This document shows, piece after piece, positions 15,256-28,588 of a stretch of 32,000 nt of DNA. The position numbers and the translations under genes are program-made. Location: NCBI GenBank assembly GCA_038889235.1, contig JAWAHN010000001.1, positions 494,499 through 526,498 of the forward strand. Direction: 5' to 3'. Source of the stretch: Candidatus Jordarchaeales archaeon. GTDB taxonomy: Archaea > Asgardarchaeota > Jordiarchaeia > Jordiarchaeales > Freyrarchaeaceae. How positions within the stretch are numbered: position 1 is the first letter of the stretch; every line of letters starts with the position of its first letter. The notes beneath the pieces are model-generated. The model had not been told where the DNA came from and searched no databases. It saw only the letters and a list, made by a program, of their open reading frames with translations.

Positions 15256-16800
15256 GTGGCAATGCCTATGCTTCCCAGCGAGCTTCTAGTTGTTAAAGTC
15301 CAAGGGAACAGGATTCTTCCCCGTTTCGCTAGGCTTAGCAGGGAGAACATAGAGCTAGCGTCGGAAATCATAGACATTTTTAGGAGTAGTGTTGGAAAGA
15401 AGAGGGAAGAGATAGTTGACATCATCGAGGAGTTTGAGCAAGGCGTAAACTATCGTTTTATTAGGGGCTTAAGGGTGCTGCTTGAGAGGAGGAGCACGTT
15501 CGAAGTCAAAAGCAGGCTTAACCCTGCAGACGTGCGGAAGGCGGTCTTCGAGGAGGCTAGCAAATTAGGTGGGCTCGTAACGAGCACGGAGGAGAGGAAG
15601 AGGATCCTTGAAAGGGTTGCCTCAAAGTTTTCGGCTAGCATTGAGGAAGTAGAGGAGGCACTTTGGGCAGACCAGGAGGGGGAGCACGTTCTAACTGATT
15701 TTAAAGAAGTAGAGCCTGAAGAGCTCCTCAGAATTTACAACTTGTCACTGGCTCAGACATTACTTTTTAATGCGACAAGTATGAGCGTCTACATTGAGGG
15801 GCAGTTCAGAAATGTGCTCAGAGAGGTTAAGTATAGGGGATTGATGTACTTTGCTGAGAAGGCGGGGAGGGGGGTTATGTTGACCATCGACGGGGCTGCA
15901 TCTCTTCTGAAACTAACTGAGAAGTATGGGACGTCTATGGCCAAACTTTTGCCGTCAATAGTTTCCTTGGACAGGTGGGGTTTAAGGGCTAACGTGGTGA
16001 GAAGGGATGTTGACGGAAAGCCTAGGGTTTACGAGTTCCTGTTAAGCCATAAAGATAAGCACCTCTTTAGTGTTAGAGAGGAAGGTGAGGCAGAGAAATT
16101 TGATAGTAGTGTCGAGGAGGAGTTCTACATCTCCTTCCAGTCACTTGGAACAGACTGGAAGATAAGGAGGGAGCCTGAGGCGCTCATTGCAGGTTCCTCG
16201 ATTTTCCTCCCAGATTTTTCGCTAGAAAAGGGAGACGTGAAAGTATACGTGGAAATAGTTGGCTTCTGGACTGAGAATTATGTTAAAAGGAAGCTTGAGA
16301 AGCTCAAGGAGTTAAAGGAGAAAATTATTTTGCTTGTTAACGAGGAGCTAGCGTGTTCATCATTTGAAAAACATCCAAACGTGATATATTACAGGAAGAA
16401 GGTACCGTTGAAAGAGCTCTTGAAAGTGCTTGAAAAACAGGGTGCTGAGGCAACCGTCAAAAAGCTTGAGCCTATAGAAATTGGAATATACAAGCCGAGA
16501 GCAGATGTAGTGTACTTGAGCGATGTTGCAAGCGAATTGGGAGTGAATGTAACAGTGTTGAAGGAAAGACTTAGAATTAATGGTTACTGTCTGCTTGGTG
16601 ACATGCTGGTAAGCGAGGCGCTCCTAAAAAGAGTTGAAGCTGAGCTCGGTAAAGCGGAGGGGGCGACTAGAAGCGATGTGGAAGAAATCCTCAGAAGGTA
16701 TGGCATAAGCGACTTTGACCCGGTGCTAGAATTCCTGGGATTCAAGACCGTGTGGCATGGAGTGGATCCTCGAAAGGCCAAAGTAGTAAGGGGAAAGTAG
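15256..16800 (+). CDS. bax1: DUF790 / Bax1 endonuclease (XPB partner) with C-terminal winged-helix extension
   Basis: MLPSELL start (ATG 15268 possible), YNLSLAQTLLF, DGAASL..TEKYG..AKLLP, FDSSVEEEF, REPE and PDF...YVEIVGFWT motifs. Confidence 0.9.
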   Translation: MAMPMLPSELLVVKVQGNRILPRFARLSRENIELASEIIDIFRSSVGKKREEIVDIIEEFEQGVNYRFIRGLRVLLERRSTFEVKSRLNPADVRKAVFEEASKLGGLVTSTEERKRILERVASKFSASIEEVEEALWADQEGEHVLTDFKEVEPEELLRIYNLSLAQTLLFNATSMSVYIEGQFRNVLREVKYRGLMYFAEKAGRGVMLTIDGAASLLKLTEKYGTSMAKLLPSIVSLDRWGLRANVVRRDVDGKPRVYEFLLSHKDKHLFSVREEGEAEKFDSSVEEEFYISFQSLGTDWKIRREPEALIAGSSIFLPDFSLEKGDVKVYVEIVGFWTENYVKRKLEKLKELKEKIILLVNEELACSSFEKHPNVIYYRKKVPLKELLKVLEKQGAEATVKKLEPIEIGIYKPRADVVYLSDVASELGVNVTVLKERLRINGYCLLGDMLVSEALLKRVEAELGKAEGATRSDVEEILRRYGISDFDPVLEFLGFKTVWHGVDPRKAKVVRGK

Positions 16801-16862: not shown

Positions 16863-17534
16863 TTAGGATGCGATACTGTAAACTCCGTCCCGCTTCTCAA
16901 CGAGGTTGCGTTCCTCTAGACGTTTAAGGCAGTTCTCAACAACTTTTTCCCTTAAGTCTAGTTCCTCCGATATTTCTTCTATGTTTGCCTTGCCCTTCAT
17001 TACCAACAAAGACAGGACCAGCTTCTCTAGGTAGTCCAGGCCCAACTGGTTTATGAGATCACTTATCTTAATGTTGACCTTCTGCTTAGCGCTAAGAAGC
17101 TTCACTCTTTCCCTTTCTAAATCCCTCAGCTTACTGTTGATTTCCTCTAGCTTTTTAACAAGCTCTTTAAGCTTGAACGTGAGCTCTTCCAAAGCTCCTA
17201 AAATAGGCTCTGTACTCTCCTTCTCCCTCTTAGCTTCAAGTATTTTGAGCTCGTAGAGTGATGGAGCGACGGAGAAGTCAAGTAGGAGAAAACTGTTGAT
17301 CCCATAGTATGTTCTTTCTGGTCCTACGCTGGACTTTTCGTATCCAAGCTTAACAACGAGACCTTTTTCCTCCAGGACTTTTAAGTGGTCCATCACGGCC
17401 TTCTGGCTTATGTTTAGCAGCCGGGCTAGCTGGAACGGATAGTGAGGGCATATCGACAACAGCTTTAGCAAAAGCCTCCTCGTTGGGTTAGATAATATGT
17501 AGAAAATTTCCTCGACATCTACTGGTTCACGCAA
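16863..17534 (-). CDS. ArsR-type winged-helix regulator, Phr/HSR1 heat-shock regulator-like, with coiled coil and second wHTH
   Basis: LSNPTRR, SQKAVMDHLKVLEEKGLV and GPERTYY match the recalled Pyrococcus Phr pattern; directly downstream of cdc48. Confidence 0.8.
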   Translation of the reverse strand: MREPVDVEEIFYILSNPTRRLLLKLLSICPHYPFQLARLLNISQKAVMDHLKVLEEKGLVVKLGYEKSSVGPERTYYGINSFLLLDFSVAPSLYELKILEAKREKESTEPILGALEELTFKLKELVKKLEEINSKLRDLERERVKLLSAKQKVNIKISDLINQLGLDYLEKLVLSLLVMKGKANIEEISEELDLREKVVENCLKRLEERNLVEKRDGVYSIAS

Positions 17535-17542
17535 AACGACCC

Positions 17543-17569
17543 CCCTCCTTTTCCGTCTAAAAAGGAGAG
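17543..17569 (-). promoter_or_regulatory. Stem-loop covering the Shine-Dalgarno of the Phr-like gene
   Basis: mRNA sense CUCUCCUUUU-UAGACGG-AAAAGGAGGG: 8 Watson-Crick pairs plus U-G and C-G extension; includes GGAGG. Confidence 0.55.
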
Positions 17570-19792
<2,223 letters not shown>

Positions 19793-19830
19793 TTAGGATG
19801 TAGCTAGGACCACGGCACACCCATCAGCCA

Positions 19831-19882
19831 TGCCAGCTCCATACTCTCACCCCCTTCGAGTGGTGATGTATGAGAGCTGGCA
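19831..19882 (-). promoter_or_regulatory. 52-nt stem-loop in the cdc48 leader
   Basis: TGCCAGCTC/GAGCTGGCA, CATAC/GTATG and TCACC/GGTGA stems are nested in order. Confidence 0.65.
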
Positions 19883-19885
19883 AAC

Positions 19886-19914
19886 TTTACTTGAAGTATA
19901 TTACTTTTAGTAAT
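19886..19914. promoter_or_regulatory. Tandem AC-N5-GT palindromic sites, putative Phr/HSR1 operator
   Basis: TTTAC-ttgaa-GTATA (19886-19900) and ATTAC-tttta-GTAAT (19900-19914), just downstream of the predicted start site. Confidence 0.55.
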
Positions 19915-19939
19915 CTACTTACACTTCTAGCAAAAGGAA

Positions 19940-19954
19940 TTTATAAACTTTTCG
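19940..19954 (-). promoter_or_regulatory. BRE-TATA promoter of the cdc48-regulator operon
   Basis: Minus strand CGAAAAG-TTTATAAA. Confidence 0.65.
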
Positions 19955-20224
19955 CTTAGTCTCAGACGAGCTTAATTAAGACCACTCATAGTTTCCCGTA
20001 TAGTTCGTTTTTCTAAACATGCGCGCCGCTAAAGCACTTCCAAATCGTAAAAGAGATTTATTTGATTATTCTCAATCATACTTCTCCACTACTGAATCGA
20101 ACATGTCCAACTCTAATTTTTCGTTAACGGCTCTGAAGTGGTGAAAGTTTCAGTATTGCTGGATTAATCGTGGTTTATGAGTGGTGTGTTGAGTTTGTGC
20201 GCTTTGTGTGTTCATCCATCTTAC

Positions 20225-20267
20225 TTATTAGTTTTTCTAATAAAAAAATCAAAAAAATTTAAATTAA
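20225..20267 (+). promoter_or_regulatory. Promoter of the reductase/activator pair with an upstream 7-5-7 inverted repeat
   Basis: TTATTAG-ttttt-CTAATAA (20225-20243), then AAAAAAA-TTTAAAT (20251-20264), about 50 nt before the TTG start. Confidence 0.45.
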
Positions 20268-20313
20268 AGGTGCTATCGAGATGCTTTCAGATAACTTTTT
20301 GGTGGTGTGAAGT

Positions 20314-21597
20314 TTGTCTGACGGGTACCGTGAGATGTGGAAAGAGCTCGGATTAGACTTGGAGAGGCACGATGCGCTTTTGGCATCATTACTGCCGGTT
20401 TACCAAGAAGTGTACCTCTCTCAGAAAAACAGGCCCAAGTCGATGGGGTACTATGACTTCGTCGTCTCAGAGATACATGGGTTAAGGGTAAAGGAACTCG
20501 TGGATTTCAGAAAAAAGGGTGGAAAGGTTGTCTCAACTTTCTGCCTTTACGTCCCTGAAGAACTCGTGATCGCCGCGGGAGCGGTGCAAGTTGGTCTCTG
20601 TGGTGGAGCGAATACGACGATTGAGTACGCAGAAAGGGACTTGCCTAGAAATCTCTGCCCGCTGATTAAGTCGTCTTACGGATTCAAGATATCCGCCTTG
20701 TGTCCCTACTTTGCCGTAAGTGACCTTATCGTTGGAGAAACCACTTGTGACGGGAAAAAGAAGATGTACGAGTTTCTCAGCAGACATGCTCCGACTTATG
20801 TTGTCGAGGTGCCTCACAAGCCAAACACTGAGCATGCCAAAATGCTTTGGTTTGAAGAGCTTAAGTTACTTAAGGATAAACTTGAGGAGCTTACTGGGAA
20901 CAAAATTACCGTTGAGAAGCTCAGGAATGCGGTTAACATTGTGAATGAGAAGAGAAACGTTCTCAGGAAGCTTTTTGAGGCAAGGAAGGCCCGTCCCTCG
21001 CCCATAAGTGGTAAGGATGCTATTCTTGTAACTCAAATAAGCTTCTATGATGATCCACGGCGTTTCGTCGAAAAGACAGAAGAACTCGTTAGGGAACTTG
21101 AAGAGAGAATAAAGAACAAGGAGGGCGTCGTAGACGAAGATGCTCCAAGAATAGTAATTAGCGGATGCCCCATGGCTATTCCGAATTGGAAGCTTCACCA
21201 TATTATCGAGAGCAGCGGAGCGGTAGTGGTTGCAGAGGAATCATGTACGGGTTCAAGGTATCTTAGCATCGAAAGCATTAACGCGAACGCCAAAAGCGTG
21301 GATGAGTTTCTCAGGGCGATGGTTGATGCTTACAGCAACATTCACTGCGCTTGTTTTACACCTAATGATGAAAGAGTTAATGACGTAGTGAAGTTGGTCA
21401 AGGAGTTTAGCGCTGATGGTGTCATACACTACAATCTCCACAGTTGCCACCCCTACAGCGTTGAGGCGAACAAGGTGACCAGAGCTCTCAAGGAGAAGGG
21501 TATCCCTGCAATTAGCATAGAGACAGACTACAGCCAAGAGGATGTGGGCCAGCTCACCACTAGAGTGGAAGCTTTCATCGAGATGCTCAAAAAGTAG
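20314..21597 (+). CDS. Double-cubane-cluster-type anaerobic reductase (DCCP; 2-hydroxyacyl-CoA dehydratase superfamily)
   Basis: YREMWKELGLDLERHD N-terminus, TFCLYVPEE, GLCGG, PRNLCPLIKS, CPYF, VGETTCDGKKK, EESCTG, HCAC and SCHPY. Confidence 0.85.
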   Translation: MSDGYREMWKELGLDLERHDALLASLLPVYQEVYLSQKNRPKSMGYYDFVVSEIHGLRVKELVDFRKKGGKVVSTFCLYVPEELVIAAGAVQVGLCGGANTTIEYAERDLPRNLCPLIKSSYGFKISALCPYFAVSDLIVGETTCDGKKKMYEFLSRHAPTYVVEVPHKPNTEHAKMLWFEELKLLKDKLEELTGNKITVEKLRNAVNIVNEKRNVLRKLFEARKARPSPISGKDAILVTQISFYDDPRRFVEKTEELVRELEERIKNKEGVVDEDAPRIVISGCPMAIPNWKLHHIIESSGAVVVAEESCTGSRYLSIESINANAKSVDEFLRAMVDAYSNIHCACFTPNDERVNDVVKLVKEFSADGVIHYNLHSCHPYSVEANKVTRALKEKGIPAISIETDYSQEDVGQLTTRVEAFIEMLKK

Positions 21598-21707
21598 TTG
21601 ACCACATAAGACCACGATTCACACCAACACTACTCGTCCATTTCATTTTCAACTTATTCTTGAATTTCAGAAAAGGAGTTTTTGATTTCTCTCCTCTAGG
21701 TGAGATG

Positions 21708-22487
21708 ATGGGCTACGTCATTGGGCTTGACATGGGATCAACAACGACTAAGGCATTGCTTCTTGCGGATAAAGAGATGATCTACGAGATTCGCCCAACA
21801 GGAGTGAATCCTCATGAGACAGGGAAAATGCTTCTCTCTCTACTATGTTCAAGGGCTGGGATCAGCTTAGACGATGTAGCCTGCATTGTGGCTACAGGTT
21901 ATGGGCGAGTGAACGCGCCCTACGCCAGTATAAAGATATCTGAGATAGCTTGTCACGCTAAGGGAGCCTATTTCATCAATAGAAACGTGCGTATCGTGAT
22001 TGATGTCGGAGGACAAGATAGCAAGGTGATAGCGGTAGGTAGCGAAGGAGAAGTTGTAGATTTCTATATGAATGATAAATGTGCCGCTGGCACAGGAAGG
22101 TTCCTTGATATTATGGCGTCCACTCTGGAGATGAGCCATGAAGAGATGGCGCATGCCGCTCTCAGCTCACGCAACCCGGCGAAAATATCTAGTATGTGCA
22201 CGGTTTTCGCTGAATCTGAAGTTATTTCTTTAATAGCTAAGGGGGCTAGAAAGGAAGACATTGCCGCAGGACTATGTCATGCTATAGCAGACCGGCTGGC
22301 CTCTATGGTGAGGAAGCTAGGGGTTAAGGGAGTTATCATGATGAGTGGTGGGGTAGCTAAAAACACAGGGTTAGTTAATATTCTAGGGAAGAAACTTGGA
22401 GAGAAAATATACGTGCCAGATGAGCCGCAAATAATAGGCGCACTGGGAGCAGCGCTAATAGCCAAGGAGAAAAATAGGCGATATTAG
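21708..22487 (+). CDS. ATP-dependent [4Fe-4S] activator/reductase (HgdC/BadG/DCCP-R family, ASKHA fold)
   Basis: GLDMGSTTTK, ATGYGR, EIACH, DVGGQDSK, MNDKCAAGTGRF, ISSMCTVFAESE, GGVAKN and GALGAAL; ATG 21708 (or 21705) after AGGTGA. Confidence 0.93.
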   Translation: MGYVIGLDMGSTTTKALLLADKEMIYEIRPTGVNPHETGKMLLSLLCSRAGISLDDVACIVATGYGRVNAPYASIKISEIACHAKGAYFINRNVRIVIDVGGQDSKVIAVGSEGEVVDFYMNDKCAAGTGRFLDIMASTLEMSHEEMAHAALSSRNPAKISSMCTVFAESEVISLIAKGARKEDIAAGLCHAIADRLASMVRKLGVKGVIMMSGGVAKNTGLVNILGKKLGEKIYVPDEPQIIGALGAALIAKEKNRRY

Positions 22488-22581
22488 AAGTTGTTAATAG
22501 AGGGTAGTCGTTTGGCTGCCTATTAGCAACATTACAGTTACAGGAAATCTTAGAGTATTAGTTCATTCAAAGCTTCTCAAT

Positions 22582-23919
22582 TTATTCTTCCACTCCCTTG
22601 CGCCTTCTTCTGGATATTGCTATCTCAGACGTTTTCGAAACGACCTCGTAGAGTATAGCCTTTTTTCCCTCTCTTTTCCTTAGAAGTCTTCCGAGTCTCT
22701 GGATGAACTCACGTTTGCTTCCACTTCCTCCAAGAATCACGCCAACATTTGCTTCGGGAACGTCTATACCTTCATCTAGTACTTTGCTAGTCACTACGGC
22801 ACGGTAAACTCCTTCCTTAAACTTTCTTAGTATTTCGCGTCTTTCCTTTTTCGGAGTCTTGTGCGTTATCGCCGGGATAAGGAAGGCTGAGCTCACCTTG
22901 TAGACTAGGCTATTGTGCTCCGTGAATATTATGATCCTGTCGTTTGCGTGTTTTTCGAGTATTTTTGCTAGCACGTTGAGCTTGGAGGACGAGTTTATGG
23001 AGATCGTTCTCGCTCTGTGTCTCGCTAGGAGGGCTGCTCTCGCCTTCGGGTCCCTCCCGCTTTTAAGGATAAGCTTTCTAAAGTCTTCAGGGGAGTTCAT
23101 GGAGAGGTTGTTCTCTTTCAAGTAGTTGATGTAGATGTTATAGGCTTCATCGTACGCCTTTCTTTCTTCGGGCGTTAGGTCGACGAGGACGCGTTTTATC
23201 TCGTACTCTGCAAGATGGCGGCCGGTTAGCTCTTTTATGGGAACCTCGTACTTCACTCCGCCCACTAGGCGGCTGAGTTCAACGTGCAGTCCGTCTGAGC
23301 GTTCGGGGGTTGCTGTGAGCCCCATTCTATACGGGGCGGCAGACATCTCGGCGATGTGTGAGTAGCCTGGCGATGGCAGGTGGTGGACTTCGTCAAAGAC
23401 TATGAAGGAAAATTTGTTTCCCAGTTCTTCAATCCTGAGGTACGCAGTGTCGTAGGTTGCTATGGTTATGGGTCCTAGTGTGTGCTCGCCTCCCCCGTAG
23501 AGTCCTACTTCCACGCCGAAGGTGTCTGACACCGCTGTGGCCCATTGATCCATTAGGTCGAGTGTTGGTACGACTACCAACGTCGCCTCGGAGACAATGG
23601 ATATGGCTTTCAGGGCGACGAACGTTTTACCGGACCCTGTCGGCATCACTATGACTCCGCGTTTTCCGGCTTTAACCCATGCGTTCACAGCATCTTCCTG
23701 GTAGTCTTTCAGCTTAGCGTTGAACTTAAGTATAGGGCATGGTATAAGGTCTAAAACGTTGTCGACGAACTTAAGGTTTGACTCCTTAAGAAATTCGACG
23801 ATGTCCCTGTAGTATATTGCAAGCGAGCGGTAGGCGCCTACCCTGTCATCCCACCTCGAGTGGGGGACTTGCATGCCGTAGATCAGTATGGTTCCCTTGT
23901 CATACTCCAGCTTAATCAA
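22582..23919 (-). CDS. xpb: Archaeal XPB/Rad25-type DEAH helicase
   Basis: N-terminal damage-recognition-domain-like segment (YDKGTILI...YRSLAIYY), PTGSGKT, FDEVHHL, GLTATPER, VLDEGIDVPEA and QRLGRLLR. Confidence 0.93.
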   Translation of the reverse strand: MIKLEYDKGTILIYGMQVPHSRWDDRVGAYRSLAIYYRDIVEFLKESNLKFVDNVLDLIPCPILKFNAKLKDYQEDAVNAWVKAGKRGVIVMPTGSGKTFVALKAISIVSEATLVVVPTLDLMDQWATAVSDTFGVEVGLYGGGEHTLGPITIATYDTAYLRIEELGNKFSFIVFDEVHHLPSPGYSHIAEMSAAPYRMGLTATPERSDGLHVELSRLVGGVKYEVPIKELTGRHLAEYEIKRVLVDLTPEERKAYDEAYNIYINYLKENNLSMNSPEDFRKLILKSGRDPKARAALLARHRARTISINSSSKLNVLAKILEKHANDRIIIFTEHNSLVYKVSSAFLIPAITHKTPKKERREILRKFKEGVYRAVVTSKVLDEGIDVPEANVGVILGGSGSKREFIQRLGRLLRKREGKKAILYEVVSKTSEIAISRRRRKGVEE

Positions 23920-23961
23920 TGAACTTCACCTTTAAGGGATAAGATGGAAACGGTTCTAATT

Positions 23962-24804
23962 TTAGTTTTCCGCCCTTTTTGAGGTGGGCTCACCCGTCTT
24001 TTTGCCCAGGAAGATCCAGACGGGGCAGAGCCACTTGACGTAAAAGTGTTTTAGGATGAATGTTGCAGCGCGCATTACAACTCTGCCTATCCTTGAGTTT
24101 GGTATGAGCCGGCGGAGGGAGCGTATCTTTTCGTCCAAGTTCCAGGAGTATAGGCGTATTCCCACGCTCTCGAATGCTTTCACCAGTTTCGGGTATAGTG
24201 GGAGGAAGAAGACCTCGTTTGTTTCACCTCTCTTAGTCGACTTAACATAGGCCTCAGCGATCCTTCTTGGGAGGAGCGTGAAGAAGGGGAGGAGGTAGTG
24301 GTTGTCTTTCAATATGATTCGGGGGGATATCCTGTTGGGGCACGTTAGGTAGACTATTCCTCCCTTTCTTAGAACTCTAGCTACTTCACCCACCATCTTG
24401 GACGGATTGTTCAGGTGTTCTATTACGTCACTGCAGGCTACGAAGTCAAAAGCCCCGTTCTTGAAGGGCATGCTTTCCCCGCTCGCCACCAGCAGGTTCA
24501 ACTCAACACCCTCCTCTCTCCCCCACGCCGTTGCAACTTTAAGGTACCTTGGGTCCACGTCGAAAGCAACTGTGGCAGAACTTCTCTTGGTGAAAGCTAT
24601 TGCTAGTCCGCCTGCTCCGCACCCGACATCAAGAAAGAACTTTCCTTCAACTGGCAAGAGACGTTCCAGAACTTCTAGGAGCATTTCCCCCCTCCTGACC
24701 CCAAGAAAGGTGTACATGAAGTAGAGGTCGTACAGCTTCTTAGAGCCAGGAACAACCGGCTTTATCAGCTCCCTCCAAAGCGTCTTGGCATCTTTTTCTG
24801 CCAT
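23962..24804 (-). CDS. Class I SAM-dependent methyltransferase
   Basis: FLDVGCGAGG, FDVD, GESMPFKNGAFDFV..SDVIEHL and VLRKGG motifs; ATG 24804 after GTGGTG (ORF track start 24879). Confidence 0.88.
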   Translation of the reverse strand: MAEKDAKTLWRELIKPVVPGSKKLYDLYFMYTFLGVRRGEMLLEVLERLLPVEGKFFLDVGCGAGGLAIAFTKRSSATVAFDVDPRYLKVATAWGREEGVELNLLVASGESMPFKNGAFDFVACSDVIEHLNNPSKMVGEVARVLRKGGIVYLTCPNRISPRIILKDNHYLLPFFTLLPRRIAEAYVKSTKRGETNEVFFLPLYPKLVKAFESVGIRLYSWNLDEKIRSLRRLIPNSRIGRVVMRAATFILKHFYVKWLCPVWIFLGKKTGEPTSKRAEN

Positions 24805-27366: not shown

Positions 27367-27517
27367 TACTGTTTGTTCCTCCCCTTGTCTTTGAGTAGAA
27401 GAAGGGAGAGCGTAGAATATATTTAGTACTGTGACCCTGATTTCCAGTGTTTCCAATGTTTCCGACGTTGAAGCCTTTCACTGGATGCATGAAAAATACG
27501 GGTTGAGGGGAGCACGC

Positions 27518-28588
27518 TTGAGTAGCGGGATAACTTATAGGAATGCGGGCGTGGACATTAATAAGACGAGAAAGGCACATGAAAAGATTGGTGCGCTCAT
27601 TGAGCGGACTTTTGGTTTCAGAAGGGGACTGTTTGGAGAAGTTTTAGGGCCTTTCGGGCACTATGCTAACCTGATAAGTATCGGGGGCAGTAAGGCGCTG
27701 GCGCTTCACAGCGACGGGGTCGGAACTAAGGTTCTAGTTGCACAGCTCATGGACAAGTATGATACTGTGGGAATAGATTGCGTTGCCATGAACGCTAATG
27801 ACTTGATATGTGTCGGCGCGGAGCCCGTGGCATTAGTCGACTACCTTGCTGTCGAGGAGCCAAGGGAGGATATGATCTCCGAGATAATGAAGGGGCTCGT
27901 GGCTGGAGCGGAGGAGGCTGGGATGGCCATTGTCGGGGGAGAGACGGCCGTAATGCCTGACGTGATAAAAGGTGCTGTCCCGGGAAGGGGGTTTGACCTT
28001 TCAGCGGCCAGTATAGGGGTTGTTGATGTCGACAAGGTTATCACTGGAGCGGCGATGAAGCCGGGGGATTTAGTTATTGGGTTGGAGAGCAGTGGTGTGC
28101 ACTCGAATGGCATAACGCTGGCGAGAAAAGTGCTACTTGAACGTGCAGGCTTAAGTGTTCACGACAGGCTTCCAATATCGGGGGAAAGGGTTGGCGACGC
28201 ACTCCTAAAGCCTACTAGGATATACGTCAAACCTGTTCTAGAGGCTTTAAAGGTTGCCGAGGTTCGCGGGCTAGGACACATAACTGGAGGGGCGTTCAGT
28301 AAGCTTAACAGGATCTGCATGGGGAGAGTTGGTTTGCTTTTAGACCACATGCCTGAACCGCATCCAGTTTTCTTAGACATACAAGAGGCTGGGAACGTGG
28401 ACGACGGGGAAATGTATAGGACGTTTAACATGGGTGTTGGGTTCGTGATCGTGACGAGCAAGGATACTGCCGACGACGCCATTGAGGTTTGCAAGAGACA
28501 TGGAGTTGCTGCGAACGTTATAGGAAGGGTGGTTGAGGGAAAAGGTGTGCGCGTGGTTACCCCTAAGGGGCGCGTAATTGATATGTAA
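27518..28588 (+). CDS. purM: Phosphoribosylformylglycinamidine cyclo-ligase (AIR synthetase)
   Basis: TYRNAGVDI, SDGVGTK, GIDCVAMNAND, GGETAVMP, SSGVHSNG, HITGGA and RTFNMGVG; TTG 27518 after GAGGGG. Confidence 0.97.
   Translation: MSSGITYRNAGVDINKTRKAHEKIGALIERTFGFRRGLFGEVLGPFGHYANLISIGGSKALALHSDGVGTKVLVAQLMDKYDTVGIDCVAMNANDLICVGAEPVALVDYLAVEEPREDMISEIMKGLVAGAEEAGMAIVGGETAVMPDVIKGAVPGRGFDLSAASIGVVDVDKVITGAAMKPGDLVIGLESSGVHSNGITLARKVLLERAGLSVHDRLPISGERVGDALLKPTRIYVKPVLEALKVAEVRGLGHITGGAFSKLNRICMGRVGLLLDHMPEPHPVFLDIQEAGNVDDGEMYRTFNMGVGFVIVTSKDTADDAIEVCKRHGVAANVIGRVVEGKGVRVVTPKGRVIDM

Follow-up and report, generated by a model that had tools for sequence, protein, structure and literature searches.

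Two adjacent plus-strand genes, at 20314-21597 and 21705-22487 of the 32,000-nucleotide stretch of archaeal DNA analysed here (the window), very probably code for a double-cubane cluster protein (DCCP) of class I together with the ATP-dependent reductase that serves it (DCCP-R), with the mechanism of the Carboxydothermus hydrogenoformans system. The window belongs to a 2.14 Mb assembly, 95% complete, whose host is a Jordarchaeales (Asgard) archaeon of a hot spring. DCCPs count as the archetype of the benzoyl-CoA reductase/2-hydroxyacyl-CoA dehydratase family; they are also viewed as ATP-driven reductases of a nitrogenase-like kind. No physiological DCCP substrate was established as of 2025 (PMC11971306). 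As physiological role of the pair we propose, tentatively and at less than an even chance, a reductive step of selenium assimilation that would provide selenide or carrier-bound reduced selenium for SelD.

The first gene has a TTG start and codes for 427 aa. Its product scores 501.1 bits with the NCBIfam equivalog of the double-cubane reductase (NF040772, cut-off 350) and 433 bits with PF06050 (HGD-D), the whole domain being covered. Its best matches in the PDB are C. hydrogenoformans DCCP, i.e. 7YYL and 6ENO (E-values 5e-143 and 2e-142; 478 bits), which align from residue 6 to residue 425 or 426 of the query with residues 5-422 of the chain, the last one, with three small gaps. The homology E-values, from 1e-130 to 1e-150, are far beyond chance. 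The third-best match, BzdN, falls to 123 bits. Residues 6-66 pair gaplessly with residues 5-65 of 6ENO and 7YYL. In DCCP these approximately 60 N-terminal residues shut the substrate channel, and they are absent from YjiM of Escherichia coli (PMC7317905). Since this extension is present in the window protein, it is assigned to the class-I, long form.

The Cys residues of the protein were located by script at positions 77, 96, 115, 130, 145, 285, 311, 345, 347 and 378, with the motif ETTCDGKKK at residues 142-150 and SCHPY at residues 377-381; the open reading frame (ORF), the ten positions and both motifs are exactly those that an earlier note on this DNA had described. Seven of them (77, 96, 115, 145, 311, 345 and 378, spaced X18/X18/X29/X165/X33/X32) form the DCCP motif. 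An alignment of 16 relatives of 56-93% identity shows no variation at these seven or at C130, C347 and N113. Both Cys triads are therefore invariant, whereas the earlier note had named the conservation of a single three-ligand set as the observation that would speak against a DCCP. The predicted ligands of the [8Fe-9S] cluster are C77, C115, C145, C311, C345 (or C347) and C378; the sequence does not discriminate between the two Cys of the CxC pair. C96 would be the seventh, non-ligand Cys and would equal Cys94 of the published protein. The numbering was carried over from the family review with N111 and Cys94 as anchors. N113 corresponds to N111 of C. hydrogenoformans DCCP, which hydrogen-bonds Cys115 of DCCP-R (PMC9351452). 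The alignment with C. hydrogenoformans DCCP thus runs end to end and includes the seven motif Cys, the N-terminal extension and the contact Asn, and the family profile search is likewise above its cut-off; both are checks that the earlier note had named.

The same fold is found in enzymes acting on CoA esters, and the pair could be read as a 2-hydroxyacyl-CoA dehydratase or a benzoyl-CoA reductase of class I with its activator; we regard this as very improbable. PF06050 is common to both groups, the annotations of relatives at JGI read 'BcrC/BadD/HgdB', and the activator resembles HadI most. The equivalog models of these enzymes nevertheless score far under their cut-offs: 135 bits vs 454 for BzdN, 125 vs 700 for HadC, 80 vs 421 for BcrC and 48 vs 750 for HadB, the six models examined (these four, BcrB and BzdO) giving 27-135 bits against cut-offs of 421-750. 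A profile search of the 95%-complete source genome found PF06050 and PF01869 in a single gene each, and no second HGD-D or BcrAD gene. The HgdAB and HadBC enzymes comprise two unlike HGD-D subunits and score at equivalog level, and BcrABCD and BzdNOPQ comprise two HGD-D subunits and two different BcrAD-type ATPases; neither set is present in the source genome. Because the PF06050 and PF01869 genes are single, two-subunit dehydratases and four-subunit class-I benzoyl-CoA reductases are both excluded. In addition, both Cys triads are carried by the window protein, the N-terminal extension makes the channel of DCCP too narrow for CoA esters (PMC7317905), and no CoA-transferase or acyl-CoA gene was found among the window ORFs. 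The earlier note had preferred DCCP to HgdA/B and had counted a single such subunit; the equivalog scores, the N-terminal extension and the Cys motif agree with the former, and the genome-wide count with the latter.

The second gene lies within a longest open frame of 21660-22487 in the ORF list, but its start is probably ATG 21705 or 21708 and not 21660, because PDB homologues align only from residue 17-21 of the long frame and because a Shine-Dalgarno sequence, GGTGA (21699-21703), precedes ATGATG (21705-21710). The gene then spans 21705-22487 on the plus strand and codes for 259-260 aa. From its scores with PF01869 (210 bits vs a cut-off of 31.5) and TIGR00241 (274 bits vs 125), the protein is classed as an ASKHA ATPase of the BcrAD_BadFG/acyl-CoA dehydratase activase type. 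Its best matches in the PDB are HadI (4EHT, 232 bits), MbdQ (200 bits), HgdC (1HUX, 190 bits) and DCCP-R (7YYL_E, 177 bits). The cluster ligands named for DCCP-R are C115 and C152 (PMC9351452). They align, in 7YYL_E, with C125 (in NDKCAAGTGRF) and C164 (in SMCTVFAESE) of the window protein, numbered from ATG 21708 (C141 and C180 when counted along the long ORF). The protein is thus predicted to form a homodimer in which C125 and C164 bridge one [4Fe-4S] cluster. The downstream ASKHA-fold [4Fe-4S] activator of the earlier note is confirmed in that both profiles are above their cut-offs and both cluster Cys are present.

Three points weigh against the assignment of the pair to DCCP and DCCP-R. 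The published DCCP motif is CX19CX18-19CX29CX166-170CX32-34CX32C (PMC7317905), from which the spacing in the window protein deviates by one residue in three places. This mismatch is probably a matter of counting, because C. hydrogenoformans DCCP itself, aligned without gaps, has X18/X18/X29 in its N-terminal half. The activator is nearer HadI than DCCP-R by the bit scores given above. Finally, the window protein is known from its sequence alone. The homodimeric state of the DCCP, its cluster type, the stoichiometry and the coupling to ATP would follow by analogy with the bacterial system.

On the model of that system (PMC9351452, PMC7317905), from which the mechanism is taken by homology, the DCCP-R homodimer would carry one [4Fe-4S] cluster between its subunits, held by C125 and C164 of each. 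Ferredoxin or another low-potential donor would supply it with an electron; it would bind MgATP and dock where the DCCP homodimer has its twofold axis. Hydrolysis of ATP and release of the products would then lift the electron to the [8Fe-9S] double cubane of DCCP, an uphill step; six Cys would hold this cluster, and the seventh would lie alongside. A small substrate would enter by the narrow channel that the N-terminal helices close, and be reduced at the cluster.

Because selenium genes had turned up repeatedly at distant DCCP loci, 80 DCCP loci were fetched by similarity to DCCP alone and their ORFs were scanned with profiles from a few seed neighbours; neighbours were counted in the 50 loci that have 2.5 kb or more of sequence on either side. 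A DCCP-R gene is near DCCP in 33 of the 50 loci, a true selD lies within 6 kb in 17, tusA or yedF is near in 17, a LysR gene in 14 and dsrE in 8. Kin among these loci are not independent, so that such co-occurrence counts are descriptive and overstate the link, which is a first point against a selenium role. The gene that follows DCCP in locus L020 is selD (336 bits with the NCBIfam model), the TusA-like neighbour of approximately 200 aa is YedF (TIGR03527, 209 bits), and the best model of the LysR neighbours is NF040786, “selenium metabolism-associated LysR”. Among the arrangements are a LysR gene divergent from dsrE-tusA-DCCP-selD in six Bathyarchaeia, selD-DCCP-selD in one metagenome-assembled genome (MAG) of Promethearchaeota, and DCCP-DCCP-R followed by yedF or selD in Chloroflexota, Actinomycetota and Thermodesulfobacteriota.

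The source genome and 40 relatives were also searched. NF040772 is above its cut-off in only 8 of these 41 genomes, and selD is present in 7 of the 8, the exception being a 73%-complete MAG; 11 genomes have selD without DCCP. The association was already reported by Haft and Gwadz (bioRxiv 10.1101/2022.07.06.499078), who discuss the selenium link and place 955 of 970 NF040772 proteins in SelD-containing assemblies. Beside YedE, YedF and LysR_Se, the STRING table of Lin et al. 2015 has entries for a “2-hydroxyglutaryl-CoA dehydratase subunit” and for a “CoA-substrate-specific enzyme activase”, and the putative selenium genes of a later preprint include DCCP and DCCPR. The link between DCCP and selenium is thus published and not new.

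In the archaeal loci L035-L040 (Bathyarchaeia), L051 and L073, selD directly follows DCCP or stands on both sides of it, and DCCP-R is absent within 6 kb. The ATPase must there be encoded elsewhere or be dispensable.

The source genome has a selD gene (locus L117; contig 1, G000:C1:553192-554227), approximately 26.7 kb beyond the end of the window, whose active-site motif G-U-A-C-K (LHG-U-ACK) contains an in-frame TGA. It also has SepSecS (412 bits), one LysR that passes NF040786 (273 bits vs a cut-off of 250; G000:C1:949890-950825) and, on contig 3, dsrE and tusA side by side (G000:C3:397438-398105). These selenium partner genes are scattered over three contigs and not clustered.

Some side observations concern these genes. 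The selD gene holds a 31-nt frame-shifting insert at 553441-553471, the removal of which restores SDVY followed directly by AKGATEIVGF. It forms an 8-bp hairpin flanked by bulges of 3 nt and by a 4-bp GUGU/GCAU helix, and resembles a bulge-helix-bulge. Approximately 11 kb upstream of selD, G000:C1:541727-542491 contains two more adjacent ORFs of the DsrE family (94 and 32 bits with the DsrE profile). Run on the source genome (2.14 Mb), aragorn reported only 7 tRNA genes and none for selenocysteine, despite the presence of SepSecS and of a Sec-type selD, which we read as a failure of the tool and not as absence; many tRNA genes of this genome are probably intron-bearing, split or unassembled.

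The selenium role is proposed because DCCP co-occurs with, and often adjoins, selD, yedF/tusA, dsrE and the selenium-type LysR, and because the source genome has all of these elsewhere. A more specific version, which we would call speculative, is that DCCP/DCCP-R may be the missing ATP-driven, very-low-potential selenium reductase, converting zero-valent or carrier-bound selenium from DsrE-, TusA- or YedF-type proteins to selenide; in this archaeon it would be part of a dispersed regulon under the selenium-type LysR, which would act through the operator-like element at 20232-20252.

The upstream region was examined for such an operator. A core promoter block at 20220-20270 of the plus strand is the sole well-conserved stretch of the 536-nt spacer between cdc48 and DCCP among members of the genus. 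It consists of a TATA-like element, CTTACTTATTAG (20220-20231), an operator-like element, TTTTTCTAATAAAAAAATCAA (20232-20252), and TTTAAATTAAAGG (20258-20270). The layout TATA plus TAATA-N5-TATCA is common to the DCCP upstream regions of other Jord/Freyr genomes and to the LysR-linked operons of Bathyarchaeia. As a LysR operator the site was tried and rejected: the expression TCTAATAA-N4-7-AT[CT]A matches the genome once, at the DCCP promoter, but was written after the site had been seen, and a position weight matrix did not give a significant result. No convincing shared motif was found upstream of dsrE-tusA, selD and the LysR gene of the source genome. An operator role of 20232-20252 is thus suggestive only.

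Several of these results count against a selenium role of the window pair, beside the kinship of the loci. No selenium gene is near the pair in the source genome, and the AIR-synthase-like gene at 27431-28588 is PurM (376 bits); it had been considered as a possible selD, by comparison with L020, and was rejected for this reason. The position weight matrix gives the window site 13.8 bits, a score that over 25 further sites of the genome exceed; the matrix was built only from Bathyarchaeia-type sites, i.e. six genome loci and L020.

The alternative is a generic ATP-driven reductase of small molecules, independent of selenium, that would act on substrates of the acetylene, azide and hydrazine kind, the link with selD reflecting a shared strictly anaerobic lifestyle. 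We give this reading an even chance. The reduction of acetylene, azide and hydrazine is the only activity measured in the family (PMC7317905), the window pair stands alone between cdc48 and xpb, and 29 of the 50 well-flanked loci are without a nearby selenium gene. However, DCCP repeatedly stands directly next to selD, yedF and the selenium-type LysR, in Bathyarchaeia, Chloroflexota, Actinomycetota, Thermodesulfobacteriota and Promethearchaeota, which is hard to attribute to habitat alone, and the chance that a single-copy gene falls within 12 kb is below 1%.

The double cubane might also be non-catalytic here and store low-potential electrons or relay them to a separate, unlinked partner enzyme, as in BzdN, or the cofactor itself might need selenium, e.g. 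a bridging Se. In BzdNO the [8Fe-9S] cluster is an electron store (PMC11971306), and the selenium-containing cofactor is a formal possibility raised by Haft and Gwadz (bioRxiv 10.1101/2022.07.06.499078). We consider this pair of explanations improbable: the source genome has no BzdO-like partner gene, and C. hydrogenoformans DCCP produced in E. coli turns over small substrates alone (PMC7317905).

Transcription and translation signals of the pair were also surveyed. A Shine-Dalgarno-like GGTGGTG, as read from the sequence, occupies 20301-20307, 6 nt ahead of the TTG start. Both are conserved in the genus, and remoter relatives have ATG at the equivalent codon. The spacer between the two genes measures 107 nt (21598-21704), with GGTGA just before the ATG of DCCP-R; the corresponding gap is 118 nt in three related MAGs. 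No terminator-like site was found on the plus strand of this spacer, no Rfam family matches within 19500-22700, and scans for bacterial promoters and terminators remained at chance level. A hot-spring metatranscriptome (X6, raw reads, approximately 3% sampled) gave no reads on 17500-24000, an absence that carries no information on the pair since cdc48 is equally bare, and a second RNA dataset (X8) likewise gave none. In contigs of a sediment metatranscriptome (X5), from a relative 95-99% alike, cdc48 has a depth of 8-32 and parts of DCCP 0.25-3.7, with no coverage of DCCP-R or the upstream spacer. This is at most a weak hint that the pair is expressed at a low level.

The pair is flanked by cdc48 (17570-19777, minus strand, divergent) and xpb (22582-23919, minus strand, convergent), and no metabolic gene adjoins it. 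The order cdc48, DCCP pair, xpb is kept in three other Jordarchaeales MAGs. The G+C content of the two genes (47%) is that of the window (48%), and the window carries genes compatible with an Asgard host: a proteasome beta subunit, Cdc48, XPB, a Bax1-like DUF790 protein, a NOG1-type GTPase and DUF1152. Genes for FwdB, FwdD and an FwdF-like polyferredoxin occupy 1-2628. They are genuine, but they were rejected as context of the pair, which is approximately 18 kb away, with more than 15 unrelated genes in between. The feeding of the reductase by ferredoxins of the Fwd system, which the earlier note had raised as possible, finds no support: cdc48 and xpb are the flanks, and nothing links the pair to Fwd ferredoxins in particular. 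Activators of the DCCP-R kind in general draw electrons from ferredoxin or flavodoxin.

The gene of the Bax1-like nuclease (DUF790, 15256-16800) and xpb are usually adjacent in archaea. Here they are 5.8 kb apart, the interval being occupied by an ArsR/TrmB-type regulator, by cdc48 and by the DCCP pair.

The closest database protein to the window DCCP (93% identity) comes from a Candidatus Jordarchaeales MAG and carries the NCBI label “double-cubane-cluster-containing anaerobic reductase”; the database search also returned relatives from Jordarchaeaceae and from Freyrarchaeum/Freyarchaeota. In a maximum-likelihood tree of 95 DCCPs, obtained by a quick search and rooted at midpoint only, the window protein falls in a strongly supported Jord/Freyr clade of 13 members, sister to the Bathyarchaeia DCCP clade (SH-aLRT 94). 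The DCCPs of Promethearchaeota and Hermodarchaeota are placed elsewhere in the tree. Inside the Jord/Freyr group the gene thus seems to have descended vertically; its wider distribution is patchy. In one genome of the same family and another genus (G004), the only match to NF040772 is a 40-bit fragment covering positions 15-137 of the profile, with an in-frame TGA (G004:C9:20344-20712). Possibly this is the remnant of a DCCP gene in decay; the sister genus retains selD.

Compared with known systems, the window pair is most like CHY_0487/CHY_0488 of C. hydrogenoformans (PDB 6ENO, 7YYL, 7YZM, 7YZQ), with a collinear full-length match, the N-terminal extension, the seven Cys and the contact Asn, and a DCCP gene that adjoins an ASKHA reductase with both cluster Cys. 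In contrast, its host is archaeal (Asgard) and its genes are 107 nt apart, the system being a sequence-based prediction; its reductase is 16-17 residues longer than C. hydrogenoformans DCCP-R and nearer HadI in sequence. The DCCPs of the selenium operons, in Bathyarchaeia and others, belong to the same family, have a similar promoter layout and have the same partner genes that the source genome contains. These Bathyarchaeia loci nevertheless have no adjacent DCCP-R, whereas the window locus has one, and the partners are clustered there and scattered here. YjiM and YjiL of E. coli, candidates for class-II DCCPs, share the seven-Cys motif and the adjacent archerase-type ATPase (PMC7317905), but YjiM is without the N-terminal channel-closing helices that the window protein has. 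BzdN (PDB 8S02) has the same fold and likewise binds [8Fe-9S]; it pairs with BzdO and two different ATPase subunits, its cluster relaying electrons, and such partners are absent from the source genome. HadBC/HadI and HgdAB/HgdC belong to the same superfamily for both components (190-232 bits between the window activator and HgdC or HadI). These dehydratases have two unlike subunits with one three-Cys cluster each and CoA-ester substrates, whereas the window protein carries both triads in one chain.

The window DCCP is in itself an ordinary member of its family, which automatic annotation can recognise, with no unusual feature of its own. The locus adds a DCCP of Asgard archaea (Jordarchaeales), apparently inherited vertically within the Jord/Freyr group, and shows that the published co-occurrence of DCCP and SelD applies to an Asgard archaeon that uses selenocysteine. 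Its main value lies in the family-wide pattern, already in the literature, of DCCP standing beside selD, yedF and LysR_Sec_metab in several phyla. Because of this adjacency, a role of DCCP in the reduction of selenium is worth testing.

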